Part shown: one piece after another, positions 4,531-62,161 of the stretch | How the letters are laid out: the number at the start of each line of letters is the position of its first letter | Position numbering within the stretch: position 1 is the first letter of the stretch | NCBI GenBank assembly: GCA_042408215.1 | Contig: JAYFMW010000030.1 | Coordinates: 576,001 to 640,000 of the forward strand | Length of the DNA: 64,000 nt | Reading direction: 5' to 3' | DNA from: Microcoleus sp. | GTDB lineage: Bacteria > Cyanobacteriota > Cyanobacteriia > Cyanobacteriales > Microcoleaceae | The notes under the pieces: model-generated | Told to the model about the DNA's origin: nothing | The model's database searches: none | Seen by the model: the letters and a program-made list of their open reading frames with translations, nothing else | Made by a program: the position numbers and the translations under genes

Positions 4531-5000
4531 TGGGGTTCAGAAACCGGGGTTTTTTCCGAAATACTTCGTTGTCACCCGCAGACTTGGTGAAACACATTCG
4601 GCTTCGCTCAGTGCTTTGTCGGAGTGCGTGGGGTTCAGAAACCGGGTTTTTTCCGAGATACTTCGTTGTTACCCACAGACTTGGTAAAAAACCCGGTTTC
4701 TTGTCGGAGTGTAAGTCCAGAAACCGGGTTTTTTCCGAAATACTTCGTTGTCACCCACAGACTTGGTAAAAAACCCGGTTTCTTGTCGGAGTGCGTGGGG
4801 TTCAGAAACCGGGTTTTTTCCGAAATACTTCGTTGTCACCCACAGACTTGGTAAAAAACCCGGTTTCTTGTCGGAGTGCGTGGGGTTCAGAAACCGGGTT
4901 TTTTCCGAGATACTTCGTTGTTACCCACAGACTTGGTAAAAAACCCGGTTTCTTGTCGGAGTGCGTGGGGTTCAGAAACCGGGTTTTTTCCGAAATACTT
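4531..5000. repeat. Tandem array of about 84-bp REP-like units
   Basis: Repeated inverted pair AGAAACCGGGTTTTT...AAAAACCCGGTTTCT, 5-6 near-identical units. Confidence 0.9.
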
Positions 5001-34617: not shown

Positions 34618-35232
34618 GGTAAAAAACCCGGTTTCTTTAGTTGGCTGGTAGCCAGAAACCGGGTTTTTTTACGAAATACTTGGTTGTCACCCGCAGATTA
34701 GGTAAAAACCCGGTTTCTTTAGTTGGCGGGTAGCCAGAAACCGGGTTTTTTTACGAAATACTTCGTCGCCACCGGTAGATTCAGTAAAAAACCCGGTTTC
34801 TTTAGTTGGCTGGTAGCCAGAAACCGGGTTTTTGTCGAAAAATCCCCCATCAAAACCCGCAGATTAGGTAAAAACCCGGTTTCTTTAGTTGGCGGGTAGC
34901 CAGAAACCGGGTTTTTGTCGAAATACTTGGTTGTCACCAGCAGATTCGGTAAAAAACCCGGTTTCTTTAGTTGGCGGGTAGCCAGAAACCGGGTTTTTTT
35001 ACGAAATACTTCGTCGCCACCGGTAGATTCAGTAAAAAACCCGGTTTCTTTAGTTGGCTGGTAGCCAGAAACCGGGTTTTTGTCGAAAAATCCCCCATCA
35101 AAACCCGCAGATTAGGTAAAAACCCGGTTTCTTTAGTTGGCGGGTAGCCAGAAACCGGGTTTTTGTCGAAATACTTGGTTGTCACCAGCAGATTCGGTAA
35201 AAAACCCGGTTTCTTTGTCGGAGTGCGTAAGT
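34618..35232. repeat. REP-like array with a 248-bp higher-order period
   Basis: Same AGAAACCGGGTTTTT family as 4531..5000; identical spurious ORFs at 34719 and 34967. Confidence 0.9.
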
Positions 35233-35316: not shown

Positions 35317-36744
35317 ATGCTGATGAGCCAGTGTCTAAACCCTGATTGTCTCAACCAAAACCCATCCGGTACTAACTTCTGTCATAAATGTGGAAATAAA
35401 CTGCTATTGGGCGATCGCTACCGAGCCCAAAAAATTATTGGACAAGGGGGATTTGGGCGCACTTTTCTGGCTATTGACGAGTATAAACCCTCAAAACCTC
35501 CTTGCGTTATTAAACAATTTTATCCTCAATTTCAAGGCACTTCTAGTATCCAGAAAGCTGCTGAGTTATTTGAGCTTGAAGCAGTACGCCTAGAACAGTT
35601 GGGTAAACATTCTCAAATTCCCGAATTATTAGCATATTTTAGTCAAGATGAACGGCAGTATTTAGTCCAAGAATTCATCGACGGTGAAAATTTAGCCAAA
35701 ACACTAGAAACTAAGGGATATTTTAGCGAAACGCAGATTCGTGACTTGCTTAAGAATTTATTGCCAGTGTTTGAGTTCATTCACTCTCGCCAAGTCATTC
35801 ACCGAGATATCAAGCTAGAAAATATTATTTTGAGGTCAAATCGTGAATTAGTTTTAGTTGACTTTGGCGCGGCAAAATATGCGACTCAAACAGCTTTAGC
35901 GGTAACGGGAACAATAATCGGAAGTGCTGGATATACAGCACCGGAACAAGCAGCAGGGAAAGCTATTTATGCTAGTGATATTTATAGTTTAGGTGTGACT
36001 TGTCTATGTCTGTTAACTCAAGTTGAACCGCTTGAATTATTCGATGTGAGCGAGTTTGAGTGGGTGTGGCGAGAACACTTAAAAACGTCTGTTAGTTCAG
36101 AATTGGGTCAGATTTTAGATAAAATGATTCAACCTGCTATTAAGAAACGTTATCAATCTGCTACTGAAGTGTTGCAGGCTATTGCTTCTCAATCACCTCA
36201 ACCATCACCTCAAGTATCTCCTCCGCCACCAGACTCCCTGAAATCAGCGCGGGGTGTTGACTATACTCGTCTCCGGGATTTATTGGCCACAGGGGAGTGG
36301 AAAGAAGCGGATGAGGAAACACTCAAGGTGATGTTAAAAGCTGCTAGACGGGAGAAGGAAAGCTATTTTAATAGGGAATCGATCGAGAATTTTCCTTGCG
36401 ATGATTTGCGGACGATCGACCAATTGTGGGTAAAATACAGTCAGGGTCACTTTGGCTTTAGCGTCCAGAAAAAAATCTGGTTGGAAGTAGGCGGTAAAGT
36501 TGATTATGATACAGAATGCAAGTTGGGCGATCGTGTCGGTTGGCGAAAGAGGAGAAAGGGGAGGAAAGATTGGTTGAAGTACGATGACCTGACGTTTAAT
36601 CTAAAGCAAGCACCACGGGGACACCTCCCGTCGTGTGCGCGTGTGTTTGCGTGGGAGGGAGGAGGATTGGGTTGGGTTGTTGGGGTGTTGGGGTGGTTGG
36701 GGTTGGTTGTGTGGTTCTCTCTTCTCTCGCATCGAGAACTGTAA
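35317..36744 (+). CDS. Ser/Thr protein kinase with N-terminal 4-Cys ribbon and C-terminal GUN4 domain
   Basis: CLNPDC..FCHKCG, GQGGFG, HRDIK, DFG, APE; GUN4 motifs DYTRLRDLL, WKEADEET, IDQLWVKYS, GFSVQ, GHLP. Confidence 0.93.
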   Translation: MLMSQCLNPDCLNQNPSGTNFCHKCGNKLLLGDRYRAQKIIGQGGFGRTFLAIDEYKPSKPPCVIKQFYPQFQGTSSIQKAAELFELEAVRLEQLGKHSQIPELLAYFSQDERQYLVQEFIDGENLAKTLETKGYFSETQIRDLLKNLLPVFEFIHSRQVIHRDIKLENIILRSNRELVLVDFGAAKYATQTALAVTGTIIGSAGYTAPEQAAGKAIYASDIYSLGVTCLCLLTQVEPLELFDVSEFEWVWREHLKTSVSSELGQILDKMIQPAIKKRYQSATEVLQAIASQSPQPSPQVSPPPPDSLKSARGVDYTRLRDLLATGEWKEADEETLKVMLKAARREKESYFNRESIENFPCDDLRTIDQLWVKYSQGHFGFSVQKKIWLEVGGKVDYDTECKLGDRVGWRKRRKGRKDWLKYDDLTFNLKQAPRGHLPSCARVFAWEGGGLGWVVGVLGWLGLVVWFSLLSHREL

Positions 36745-36856
36745 GCTGTAATCTCTAGCGATTTCAGCCCTTTGTCAAGTCTTTTTTCTCGAACCTTTTT
36801 CTACGAAGTTATCGGCTTTTGGTCATTTCATTACCTGCTACTTAAATTAATAATCA

Positions 36857-37111
36857 ATGCCAATAAAAGTCAGAGATATAATTAAACAACTAGAGGCAGA
36901 CGGTTGGTATCTAGCTAGAACACGAGGGAGTCACCGCCAGTACAAACATCCTACCAAATCAGGTTTAGTTACAGTTCCGGGTAAACTATCTGACGATTTG
37001 GCTCCTGGTACATCCAATAATATTCTCAAACAAGCTCAATTCAAAGAAGTTAAAGAGCAACAAAAACCTAACGAAGTCGAAACCAATCATCAAGATGAGG
37101 ATCTCAACTAA
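36857..37111 (+). CDS. hicA: HicA toxin
   Basis: GWYLARTRGSHRQYKHP..GLVTVPG. Confidence 0.9.
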   Translation: MPIKVRDIIKQLEADGWYLARTRGSHRQYKHPTKSGLVTVPGKLSDDLAPGTSNNILKQAQFKEVKEQQKPNEVETNHQDEDLN

Positions 37112-37320
37112 TGCGTTATGCCATTGTCATTGAAAAAACACCCAATAACTATTCAGCATATCCACCAGATTTACCCGGATGTGCAGCCACAGGCGCTACC
37201 CTTGCGGAAGTACAGCAACAAATTCAAGAAGCGATCGAATTTCACTTAGAAGGATTGCGAGAAGAGGGTTTACCGATTCCCGAAGCAACTACACTTTGTG
37301 AATATGTAGAAGCAATGTAG
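37111..37320 (+). CDS. hicB: HicB antitoxin (short form)
   Basis: YSAYPPDLPGCAATGATLAE, EAIEFHLEGL; coupled to hicA. Confidence 0.9.
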   Translation: MRYAIVIEKTPNNYSAYPPDLPGCAATGATLAEVQQQIQEAIEFHLEGLREEGLPIPEATTLCEYVEAM

Positions 37321-38547: not shown

Positions 38548-40095
38548 TTGACACTCCCCGGTCTGAAGACGCGGGGATTCTTAAGGACAAACTTTGGGGG
38601 ATGAATCCGCCCAAAGTTTAATTCTTAAAGGGTTAGTCAGTAACCCGCTACCCACTCGCTCAATTATTGAGTCTATGGCTACTTTTGATTTCCTAATGAT
38701 GTTTGCCGCACCGTTAATATCTGCATTCAGAATTAATTTCTGAGCAGAACGGTACAAACCTCGTTTAATTCTTTTACCAGACGGTTGCCAATTGTCGGGT
38801 TTTTCACCGACTTTCACTGGCAACAAATCTCGGTCTAAAAAACTTGATTTTGAGGTGTAAGATTCGTCTTGCTCTACAAATCGCCAACCCCTTAAGTCAC
38901 ACTCTTGTTGTAATCTATCTTTAACTTTGGCGGTAGGGATTTGGACAAAGTTTTGGTGATTTTTGCCTCCCATATTAACTTCTTGCTTTTGTCCTTTATT
39001 CCAGCCAAAAACCAGGACATTGATTTGGTGATTTTCGCAATAATTTATGATGGTTCTAACTGCTTTGTTGACAGCATCTCTCATTCTTCTGGTGCGAGTT
39101 TCTGACAACTGTTGCAGTCTCTTTGACGAGAAACCTTTGGGTAATTTATGTATTGTGTGTTCTGATTGAATTCTCGCTTTTTCTTTGTTAAACCATTGGT
39201 TCCAAGACTTGAGTCTATGTCCATCAATAATGAATGGCTTACCATTACTAGAGACACAAGTTAACCAGTTATTGATGCCGTGATCGATACCCAGAACCCC
39301 TGTTACTTCCAAGCTGCAACTAGGGGCTTGTTCAGTCAGGGATTCGTGGACATATTCGACCCAGACCTCACCATTTCTAGGGATTAGCCTGAGTTCTTTA
39401 ATCTGGCAATCTTTCAGCCTTTCTGGTAAAGTCACCCACAGAGCATCTGCCCCAAAGTGTTCTTTGCCTTTGGTTCCCAGAGGTAGCCTTACCCGATTGC
39501 CGACTATTTTCAAGGCTTGCCCAGGGTATGAAACTTGGTACATTGCTCCCTTGGTTCTGTACTTTGGCAATCTCGGTTTTTGATTAAGTTGCCCCTTTTT
39601 AGCCAGCCTTTCTAAGGCTCGGAAAGAACTAAAGGATTCAGCAACAGACTTCAGGGATTGTTGGGCGACCTGCGAGTAGAGTAGACCGTAATTTTCGTTG
39701 GGTTTGGCAATTTTGTACAGGTCTGGGTATTTAATTACGCCTTTGTCTTTAAAGTACCGTTGCCTACTTTCGTAAGTGCCGACATTAAATAGATTGTTTG
39801 ACCATCTGAGGATTTGCTCGACAATGGTTTTGTCAAGTCCCGTTAAATGCCAAACATCTTTTTGTACTGCGTACATTTAACTTACTGGCTATGGTGACAC
39901 TAGGTTTAGTATATATCGTGAATTAACAAGTTAATTAATACTCCACAAATCTTTACCTTTGTCTCAATTGCTAGAAGTATTTGTCCGGGGACGGTTAAAC
40001 ATTATGTTATATTGAAACTTACGAACAGGCAGGATAAATCCTGCCACGCCCTTTCATCCCTGGACTAAAGTCACAGGGTTTTCAGGGTATTTCTT
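38548..40095 (-). mobile_element. IS200/IS605 tnpB-only element, paralog of 20182..21628
   Basis: TTAT | AAGAAATACCCTGAAAACCCTG left end; ...CCGGGGAGTGTCAA right end. Confidence 0.9.
38581..39876 (-). CDS. tnpB: RNA-guided endonuclease TnpB
   Basis: Highly similar to 20290..21645; GIDHG, NADINGAANI. Confidence 0.9.
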   Translation of the reverse strand: MYAVQKDVWHLTGLDKTIVEQILRWSNNLFNVGTYESRQRYFKDKGVIKYPDLYKIAKPNENYGLLYSQVAQQSLKSVAESFSSFRALERLAKKGQLNQKPRLPKYRTKGAMYQVSYPGQALKIVGNRVRLPLGTKGKEHFGADALWVTLPERLKDCQIKELRLIPRNGEVWVEYVHESLTEQAPSCSLEVTGVLGIDHGINNWLTCVSSNGKPFIIDGHRLKSWNQWFNKEKARIQSEHTIHKLPKGFSSKRLQQLSETRTRRMRDAVNKAVRTIINYCENHQINVLVFGWNKGQKQEVNMGGKNHQNFVQIPTAKVKDRLQQECDLRGWRFVEQDESYTSKSSFLDRDLLPVKVGEKPDNWQPSGKRIKRGLYRSAQKLILNADINGAANIIRKSKVAIDSIIERVGSGLLTNPLRIKLWADSSPKVCP

Positions 40096-61600: not shown

Positions 61601-62161
61601 ATGTCAAATTATCGTAGAGCATTTGTACCGGGAGGTACTTACTTTTTCGTTTTAAATACATACAAAAGGATTCCTTGGCTTTCAAGCGATATCGGTCGCG
61701 CAGGGCTGCGAAAATCTATAATGAGAGTCCAAAAACTCTATCCTTTTAAAATTGATGCGATCGTGCTTTTGCCGGATCACCTTCACATGATGCTGACTTT
61801 GCCGGATGGCGACAGCAAGTACCCCACTCGTTTGAGGTTAATTAAAGATTTTGTAACCCGATATTACGGGCATAAATTGGGAATAGAAGCAGAAATTAGT
61901 CAGTCTCGTAAAAAACGTAAGGAAAGTAACCTTTGGCAGCGTAGATATTGGGAACACGTTATTCGCGATGAAAATGATTACGCTCACCATTGCGATTACA
62001 TTCATTATAATCCAGTTAAACATAATTTGTGTCGGTCTCCGAAGGATTGGGAATTTTCTAGTTTTCATCGATTTGTTGCTCAGGGGATTTATCCTGAAGA
62101 TTGGGGCGCGAATGAAGTACCGTTAATTCCTGAAGATATTGGCGGAGAATTATATTTGTAG
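61601..62161 (+). CDS. REP-associated tyrosine transposase (RAYT, Y1 HUH)
   Basis: GGTYFF, LPDHLH, LWQRRYWEHVIRD, YIHYNPVKH, WEFSSF. Confidence 0.92.
   Translation: MSNYRRAFVPGGTYFFVLNTYKRIPWLSSDIGRAGLRKSIMRVQKLYPFKIDAIVLLPDHLHMMLTLPDGDSKYPTRLRLIKDFVTRYYGHKLGIEAEISQSRKKRKESNLWQRRYWEHVIRDENDYAHHCDYIHYNPVKHNLCRSPKDWEFSSFHRFVAQGIYPEDWGANEVPLIPEDIGGELYL

Follow-up and report, generated by a model that had tools for sequence, protein, structure and literature searches.

A candidate frame-proof tail module behind the GUN4 domain of a Microcoleus kinase gene

The kinase–GUN4 gene and its A-poor tract

A 64,000-nucleotide (nt) stretch of a Microcoleus sp. genome (contig JAYFMW010000030.1, positions 576,001 to 640,000; here called the window, in whose coordinates all positions are given) carries a protein kinase gene with a carboxy-terminal GUN4 domain, and the end of this gene is the subject of this work. 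An initial annotation, made from the sequence alone, had proposed that this end is a hypervariable region produced by a remote diversity-generating retroelement (DGR) or by some other mechanism. We favour a different account, to which we assign a probability of roughly 60%: the feature is this genome's own copy of a module of spacer, frame-proof block and non-coding DNA found at the ends of cyanobacterial GUN4-like domains, and the copy is stable here. The name ‘frame-proof GUN4 tail module’ is defined in this work and is not that of a published family. The genome comprises 7.36 Mb in 30 contigs and is 99.98% complete. The parts of the locus, all on the plus strand, are as follows.

35317..36744, plus strand: zinc-ribbon, Ser/Thr kinase and GUN4 gene, 475 amino acids (open reading frame list, Pfam)
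36244..36630, plus strand: GUN4 domain core up to GHLP (Pfam; alignment to solved Gun4 chains; AlphaFold)
36619-36630, plus strand: GHLP motif
36631..36724, plus strand: variable spacer (‘the tract’), 94 nt, G+T-rich, encoding SCARVFAWEGGGLGWVVGVLGWLGLVVWFSL (composition; replaced in other lineages)
36670..36709, plus strand: degenerate tandem repeat inside the tract, period 8-9, 4.6 copies, unit GGTTGGGGT (Tandem Repeats Finder)
36719..36758, plus strand: frame-proof end block (TCTTCTCTCGCATCGAGAACTGTAAGCTGTAATCTCTAG) with endings of L-x-S-R/H type in three frames (frame translation, paralogs, family alignment)
36759..36841, plus strand: conserved non-coding 3′ block ending in ATTACCTGCTAC (gap-free alignment, 19 loci of other genera)

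The zinc ribbon lies at the N terminus of the encoded protein and the GUN4 domain at its C terminus. Between them, a Pkinase domain spans residues 35–287 (Pfam, E value 2.3e-39; 135.8 bits against a cut-off of 31.7), which makes the protein a putative Hanks-type Ser/Thr protein kinase. The GUN4 match (PF05419), one of six in this genome, covers residues 310–441 and profile positions 2–126 of 141 (E value 1.6e-41; 142.2 bits against a cut-off of 29.2).

The solved Gun4 chains 1z3x and 1y6i align to the domain as far as GHLP, and up to that motif the core fold is the same as in bona fide Gun4, the Mg-chelatase cofactor, whose true gene (locus L001) is also present in this genome. Directly after the motif the two proteins differ, with GHLP-LSNQLR in the true Gun4 and GHLP-SCARVF in the window's protein. 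The latter lacks LxNxLR directly after GHLP and so is not a bona fide Gun4. Accessible parts of two papers describe LxNxLR as a conserved Gun4 motif whose Asn211 is required for bilin binding, with GUN4 paralogues that lack the motif (PMC10156173), and place Arg214 and Arg217 in the alpha6/alpha7 loop, Arg214 being essential for porphyrin binding (PMC1084334). As far as these parts go, bona fide Gun4 combines the LxNxLR loop with a fixed C-terminal helix, whereas the window's protein has a variable spacer and a frame-proof end. The spacer occupies the position of LxNxLR and the motif is absent; thus the spacer replaces the Gun4 ligand loop, and the annotation's idea of a diversified ligand-binding loop holds in that the segment stands where true Gun4 has its tetrapyrrole loop, as those parts describe it. 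An AlphaFold model of residues 300–475, built with 50 aligned sequences, gives predicted local distance difference test (pLDDT) scores of 75–91 for the core, below 50 for the tract (model residues 141–159) and about 58–60 for a terminal helix formed by the last 15 residues.

A recount of positions 36624–36730 gives 4 A, 16 C, 49 G and 38 T in 107 nt, exactly as annotated, in a gene with 408 A in 1,428 nt and a window with 27.8% A. The stretch starting at 36624 has the lowest A count of any 107-nt stretch in the window, and all those with six or fewer A start at 36616–36630. On the other strand, the lowest count (measured as T) is 11. The degenerate repeat inside the tract has 84% matches and a Tandem Repeats Finder score of 50, and no G run in the tract exceeds 4 nt.

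An end block read in three frames

The tract leads into a block that supplies an ending in every frame. The frame in use by the window's gene ends in FSLLSHREL* (stop at 36742–36744), and the two unused frames end in SLFSRIENCKL* (36749–36751) and LSSLASRTVSCNL* (36756–36758), which agrees with the staggered stops at 36744, 36751 and 36758 first described. These stops are spaced exactly 7 nt apart, the three 7-nt units here being CTGTAAG, CTGTAAT and CTCTAGC. All three endings follow an L-x-S-R pattern and close with a hydrophobic residue.

All three frames of one block are used by paralogs within this genome. Locus L002 ends in ILFSRVETCKA*, L003 in SSSLASRLVKCNI and the window's gene (L004) in FSLLSHREL, from block DNA common to the three, TTCTCTCGC[G/A]TCGA[G/A]A..TGTAA..GTAA..TCTA[A/G]. 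According to the annotation, all three endings resemble those of other cyanobacterial GUN4 proteins, and this likeness is real, as each of these genes uses one. The block occurs in this genome at three GUN4 gene ends only, along with one weak match; a shuffled contig yielded none. A fifth GUN4 gene of the genome (L006, C30:486776-490159) ends in ..WFLLSRGDW* with a G/T-rich tract and no recognisable block; directly behind it, heptamers (AGTCATT / GGTCATT) are repeated in tandem over a long stretch.

For a DNA-level view across genera we used the best 80 of 595 matches in one-genome-per-species contigs, obtained with a query built from this genome's own paralogs; the block was called by a fuzzy 20-mer. 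These loci come from Nostoc, Tolypothrix, Scytonema, Planktothrix, Dolichospermum, Crocosphaera, Lyngbya, Floridaenema and others. The block is present in 67 of the 80, its phases being almost evenly divided (23/22/22; 15/13/10 in the 38 non-redundant loci left after near-copy removal). The 13 loci without a block call comprise six in which GHLP was not parsed and seven with a diverged block, and several of the 13 still visibly carry one of the three ending classes. Protein endings were classed by patterns made for this analysis: C, ..LLSRRDL; A, ..FSRVETCKL; and B, ..LASRLVKCNI. Among the best 120 of 4,197 homologues, 50 endings are C (many of them near-copies of the window's gene), 31 are A, 24 are B and 15 are other, a group that includes cut proteins. 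The anticipated use of all three terminal frames is thereby found in the genome's own paralogs, at the 67 loci and among the homologues listed.

In the 38 non-redundant loci, information content is high from −6 to +33 of the block and drops right past the third stop, and the window's block aligns to the family block without gaps. Mismatch to the family consensus at codon positions 1/2/3 is 0.26/0.20/0.29, 0.30/0.27/0.27 and 0.22/0.20/0.24 in the three phase groups, so that none of the groups has the excess at third codon positions that would be a wobble signal in the block. The block is shared by tails in different frames and is therefore probably under selection in all three; we infer that it is conserved as DNA through being read in three frames across the tail population.

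The third stop is also a recurrent breakpoint in three genomes: at L040, L052 and L072 the 3′ flank turns unrelated right after ..TGTAATCTATA inside the block, and one ending is lengthened to ..SCNLYCN.

Variation, exchange and stability of the spacer

A blastn search of 79 genus genomes, one per species, found the gene or its GUN4 part in all of them, and 50 genus loci were examined in detail. The stretch between GHLP and the block takes the form of 13 unrelated sequences of 42–143 nt between conserved flanks, which bears out the claim that length and sequence vary after GHLP. Variation starts right behind the Pro codon of GHLP and ends at a CT-rich lead-in, the length of which differs in 2-nt steps between tract types. 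Past the ~80-nt 3′ block the flanks differ among species. The 50 loci divide into frame classes C (25), B (15) and A (10). In Planktothrix, Microcystis and Oscillatoriales, clusters of proteins at 90% identity contain 4–10 unrelated tails each: 10 different tails among the 15 listed members of the Oscillatoriales cluster, 7 tail strings in the Microcystis cluster, 5 of them unrelated, and 4 tails in each of two Planktothrix clusters. All three ending classes occur across these clusters.

Depletion of A is a tendency of the family, as the annotation had supposed: in the 38 non-redundant tracts the A fraction has a median of 0.11, while the 300 nt upstream of them have 0.31; for G+T the two medians are 0.77 and 0.52. 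The related claim that the tract stays open in all frames is true of the window's copy, but openness is not maintained, as only 19 of 49 genus loci are open in three frames.

Two kinds of unusual tract were seen along the way. Locus L050 (G043:C165) has a 143-nt tract with G runs of about 10–14, an internal duplication and a run of N inside, and it is the only near-homopolymer tract seen in the genus. In L056, L126 and protein clusters 8 and 9, partial second block starts lie inside the tract (for example, ..SLVSRVFSRVETCKL and ..GLLSRKTLASRLVDCNI); these partial copies look like local duplications at the tract–block junction.

Tract types disagree with the history of the gene that carries them. 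On trees of 42 full-length genus loci, the fewest changes of tract type are 18 for the kinase part and 10 for the GUN4 part, where the least possible number is 6, and type 1, the type of the window's tract, is rejected as a single clade (approximately unbiased (AU) test, p 3.8e-5, for a group named after the tree was seen). The disagreement between tract type and gene tree indicates that tails are exchanged by recombination. A second kinase family of the genus, with proteins that start MLWTPGQ.., has a GUN4 domain 73–94% identical to that of the window's protein together with the same block and flank, and its member L063 carries a type-1 tract too. The scattered types and the tail of L063 indicate that GUN4 domain, tract and block are exchanged as a unit between lineages and between paralogous genes. 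These comparisons show that GUN4-plus-tail segments pass between lineages and paralogous kinase genes by recombination, and a few old tail alleles persist across species. The loci of the second family that share GUN4 domain, block and flank are L061, L063, L070, L071, L076, L078 and L079 (N terminus ..MLWTPGQILKTRPYRID..). Sharing starts at about nt 922 of the query, and the start of the GUN4 domain may thus be a recombination boundary.

The window's own tract type is nevertheless stable, contrary to the idea that hypervariation is ongoing here. Type 1 occurs at 24 of the 50 genus loci, in different species and always at exactly 94 nt. In 22 full-length genes of this type the mean pairwise identity of the tract is 0.968, and the kinase and GUN4 parts reach 0.925 and 0.928, respectively; for a second tract type (11 loci) the corresponding values are 0.974, 0.947 and 0.894. 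Of 19 distinct type-1 variants, 8 leave the peptide of the used frame unchanged, and these make up 31 of 48 occurrences; in the two unused frames 0 and 5 of the 19 are synonymous, and chance predicts a fraction of 0.25. The pattern is that of a translated, constrained peptide, as judged by these substitutions.

In the 90% cluster to which the protein itself belongs (64 members), all 15 listed members carry one tail with point variants and no length change. A neighbouring 90% cluster has a 16-residue in-frame deletion between repeats in 2 of 12 members, and protein P0054 has the same. Contigs of two independent sequencing runs over 36300–37000 contain the same tract without indels; these are assembled contigs, in which rare variants and expression of this allele are beyond reach. 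A second form, with 127 other letters in place of 36549–36719, is present in one DNA run and one RNA run; we attribute it to another strain or a paralogue because its flanks are about 93% alike. We conclude that the locus is probably a stable allele and not an active mutator target. Of the observations that the annotation had named as counting against it, conservation of the tract among many orthologs was found and use of only one terminal frame was not.

How the module may work and how its spacer may arise

In the account that we favour, the module would have three parts. The spacer would stand right after GHLP, in place of the LxNxLR loop, and would be A-poor and G/T-rich, so that stops are rare and a peptide rich in Gly, Trp, Val and Leu results in any frame. 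The ~40-nt block behind it would provide a short ending of L-x-S-R type in each frame, with stops 7 nt apart, and a spacer of any length would therefore still give a complete protein. The last part, about 80 nt of conserved non-coding DNA, would, in other genera, join the tail to a convergent Y1/HUH (TnpA_REP-like) gene. The window has both marks by which we recognise the module, a block with stops 7 nt apart after a variable spacer and a conserved 3′ non-coding block. The comparisons above show two modes of change in the spacer, indels and a rare replacement of the whole sequence. The window's copy is probably a fixed allele that is read in frame C, translated and held under purifying selection, that has no partner Y1 gene and that does not appear to be diversifying now. 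Among the processes that may write spacers, we give first place to local slippage, duplication or repair, with selection acting afterwards, and second place to one that depends on Y1. What survives of the annotation's reading is a variable loop tolerant of changes in length and frame; the DGR and current activity at this locus do not.

Several observations weigh against this account. The sample of the best 80 of 595 matches is biased toward relatives of the genome's own paralogs, because the query was made from them. G+T reaches at least 0.75 in only 21 of the 38 non-redundant tracts, and one tract is 41% A. The group rejected as a clade by the AU test was defined by its tract, but was named with the tree already in view. 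Evidence for selection on the peptide is thin, as the 19 variants come from related, non-independent sequences. Class C genes keep the 14 nt past their own stop at a mismatch of 0.20–0.30, where random sequence would give 0.75, and own-frame selection does not explain this conservation; the same 14 nt have a mismatch of 0.09–0.19 in the phase groups that translate them. Conservation also extends past the last stop into the ~80 nt behind the block, and a nucleic-acid function, of which none was found, could conserve both.

The non-coding 3′ block connects the tail to a transposase-like gene. Its end motif, CCGATACCTGGCAC, is found in 19 of the 38 non-redundant loci and is degenerate in the window (ATTACCTGCTAC versus GATACCTGGCAC). 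In other genera a convergent gene of about 270 residues, with a Y1_Tnp match (Pfam, E value 2.3e-18) and H-V-H and RYIHANP motifs, ends in codons whose reverse complement is this motif. By tblastn, the Y1 gene stands at 22 of the 67 block-bearing loci, whole at 7 and as a C-terminal remnant at 15. Within the genus it is found in 13 of 79 genomes, several copies having stops; at G001:C675 it lies 9 nt from the GUN4 tail, and at 4 of 6 genus Y1 loci the block is within 1.5 kb of it, in convergent, tandem or distant arrangements. The same method found no Y1 gene in the 1.5 kb past the window's block or at any of the 50 genus loci, and no close homologue of the Y1 protein of locus L116 in this genome (best match 28% identical, on C17). 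Thus the neighbourhood of Y1 gene and block is real, and it could be due to a partner enzyme or to an element prone to land there; at the window's locus the 3′ block is the only remnant left of the junction. The block itself offers no sign of structure: RNAalifold on 22 copies predicts 0 pairs, the window's block folded as single-stranded DNA has a z score of −1.05 with no hairpin support, and a terminator and promoter scan of 36600–36900 found nothing.

Four other explanations need to be weighed, of which a plausible though doubtful one makes the Y1/HUH (TnpA_REP-like) enzyme the writer. It would nick single-stranded DNA at the block, repair would rewrite the spacer, the frame-proof end would serve this process, and at the window's locus the enzyme would have been lost and the target retired. 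The tail-to-tail arrangement speaks for this, with whole genes, C-terminal remnants, the 9-nt and 1.5-kb distances given above and last codons that form the end motif, as does the lack of such a gene in a genome with a stable tract. So do the partial copies of the block start that lie inside 2 of 64 distinct tracts, where 0.18 would be expected, and a published analogue in which procA genes and tnpA_REP face each other and C-terminal pieces of TnpA occur (Laurenceau et al., bioRxiv 10.1101/2020.03.09.984088, in its accessible part). However, tails differ genus-wide although only 13 of 79 genomes have the gene, several with stops; the varying arrangement equally fits an element inserting near the block; and the authors of the analogue, in that part of their text, see no strong evidence for or against causality. 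The lack of a conserved hairpin also stands against an enzyme of this kind. Known Y1 enzymes recognise hairpins. A neutral origin, in which the Gun4 loop and terminal helix were lost, the sequence past GHLP is junk and the block is an old mobile-element end or DNA site with chance stops, would fit the unalignable tails of different lineages, the pLDDT below 50 over the tract, the run of conservation into non-coding DNA that abuts a transposase gene and the lack of a codon-position signal in the block. We nonetheless judge it improbable: within a type, conservation is higher in the tract than elsewhere in the gene, and the tract variants seen most often are silent in the used frame, strong conservation of the block stops exactly at the last of three stops, the block is confined to GUN4 ends in this genome, and its three endings are alike in pattern and last residue.

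Still less probable is a simple-sequence contingency locus, in which slipped-strand mispairing in the G/T repeat would switch frequently and reversibly among three C termini within a population. The 4.6 copies of an 8–9-nt repeat, the (TC)n-like lead-in with its 2-nt steps, the G runs of about 14 in L050 and the 16-residue deletions between repeats are what slippage might leave. Against this, the repeat is imperfect and the G runs of the tract are short, the tract has the same length at 24 loci of different species, neither the listed members of its own cluster nor the contigs of two runs differ in length, tract types are unrelated sequences and not copy-number variants, and the tract has one or more closed unused frames at 30 of 49 loci. 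Least probable by far, and already largely refuted, is the proposal that the tract is the target of a DGR elsewhere in the genome. An A-poor tract at the 3′ end of a kinase-fused sensor gene would suit it, and cyanobacterial DGRs are described as acting on multidomain kinase proteins, with GUN4-like domains among the less common variable-protein domains (PMC7517822, accessible part). Yet a PF00078 search of this nearly complete genome gave four RVT_1 matches, all four best matched by group II intron reverse transcriptases in NCBIfam, and blastn-short of 36620–36800 against the whole genome returned only the query itself and 18-nt matches to the L002 and L003 blocks, so that no second copy of the tract is available as a template. 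In place of substitutions at fixed positions without change of length, the tracts differ in length and are unalignable between types, which mutagenesis at A positions would not yield, and the fold is GUN4, not a C-type lectin. Since a DGR-type reverse transcriptase and a template copy were not found and differences are in whole sequence and length, a remote DGR is not supported as the source.

Three further ideas were tried and dropped. A canonical G-quadruplex motif occurs in 7 of 64 distinct tracts, and the shuffle mean is 7.0. A telomerase-like templated repeat would need a fixed unit, and there is only a moderate enrichment of words of GGGTTT type. The inner block-start copies, read as a site-specific scar, are too few to build on.

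A broader and unlikely reading would be a phylum-wide variation of GUN4 sensor loops that needs no reverse transcriptase. A Y1/HUH single-strand nuclease or other enzyme would open the DNA at the block, rewriting would be G/T-biased and stop-free, the block would have evolved to supply a functional C terminus in each frame so that every rewrite is productive, and tail alleles would be kept and traded between species like immune-receptor alleles.

The module can be set beside several known systems. Simple-sequence contingency loci produce phase variation by slipped-strand mispairing, and a shift usually switches the gene off. They resemble the GUN4 tail in having low-complexity coding DNA whose length changes shift the downstream frame, but here every frame ends in a similar conserved peptide, and the tract is an imperfect repeat that is stable in 24 loci. 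Junctional diversity in the complementarity-determining region 3 (CDR3) of antigen receptors is somatic, is made by known enzymes and yields non-productive out-of-frame joints. It has in common with the GUN4 tail a stretch of variable length, apparently untemplated, at a fixed junction in a binding loop with conserved flanks; GUN4 variation, by contrast, is germ-line and evolutionary, and it is productive in all frames. In marine picocyanobacteria, procA genes, which encode prochlorosin precursors, face tnpA_REP, as described in the accessible part of Laurenceau et al. (bioRxiv 10.1101/2020.03.09.984088). According to that part, this system is likewise cyanobacterial; the 5′ coding part is conserved, insertions and deletions alter a hypervariable 3′ end, and gene ends face a Y1 TnpA_REP-type gene with many C-terminal fragments alongside. 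Its target, however, is a small peptide gene and not a GUN4 loop or end on kinases, caspases and similar proteins, the same part of the text does not describe a three-frame end block, and the window's locus lacks the Y1 gene; the GUN4-adjacent Y1 is likened to it at the TnpA_REP-like level only. Cyanobacterial DGRs, as presented in the accessible part of PMC7517822, also give localized, A-poor variation in the C-terminal ligand part of proteins fused to kinase, caspase, TIR or CHAT modules, but here there is no DGR-type reverse transcriptase or template, length, frame and whole stretches change, and the fold is GUN4. In a literature search that left subscription journals outside its reach, no paper was found on a three-frame ending or a variable spacer of GUN4 proteins in the text accessible to it.

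If the favoured account is right, a DNA end conserved by three-frame reading would be an unusual instance of selection acting on several overlapping frames together. Frameshifts would be harmless at one defined place, the place where true Gun4 binds tetrapyrrole, and the module would therefore provide a testable model for loop variation in bacteria without a retroelement. The sensor domains concerned are fused to kinases, caspases and TIR, CHAT and NACHT modules, and published work treats such GUN4-fused modules as conflict or signalling systems. The account would bear on what GUN4-like sensors recognize in paralogs without the bilin or porphyrin motif, and for annotation the module would explain why proteins with a GUN4 domain have three different conserved endings. 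What the window adds is a view at the level of the genus, where tails exist as discrete, old alleles that are conserved internally and exchanged by recombination, a locus that keeps the whole block without a Y1 neighbour, and a second kinase family with the same cassette.

Genes and repeats around the locus

The 3′ boundary of the module is marked by a toxin–antitoxin pair, which starts 16 nt past the block and is not part of the module.

36857..37320, plus strand: hicA (84 amino acids) and hicB (69 amino acids), toxin–antitoxin pair (Pfam)

The two proteins match HicA_toxin (E value 1.1e-20) and HicB_lk_antitox (E value 2.8e-12) in Pfam, and in relatives the position of hicA–hicB is taken by the Y1 gene or other flanks.

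A TnpB-like gene of 431 amino acids (38581-39876, minus strand; OrfB_IS605, E value 4.9e-18, and a Cas12f1-like TNB domain) lies 1.8 kb downstream of the tail with no TnpA beside it. Two pairs of toxin–antitoxin type stand between, and the gene is not linked to the tail. A 245-residue open frame at about 61637–62008 (plus strand), which lies 25 kb away from the GUN4 tail, has a weak Y1_Tnp match (E value 4.2e-5) with HLH and YIHYNP motifs and resembles a tyrosine transposase associated with repetitive extragenic palindromic (REP) elements, or RAYT. In total, the genome has 20 matches to Y1_Tnp.

Arrays of a palindromic repeat (AAACCCGGTTTCT .. AGAAACCGGGTTT, at a spacing of ~83 nt) occupy 34624–35215 and 4637–4986 of the window. 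The repeat looks like an element of REP or bacterial interspersed mosaic element (BIME) type, and such elements are the usual substrate of RAYT enzymes. The first of these arrays lies about 100 nt upstream of the kinase–GUN4 gene, and the arms of the repeat occur 609 and 571 times in the genome.

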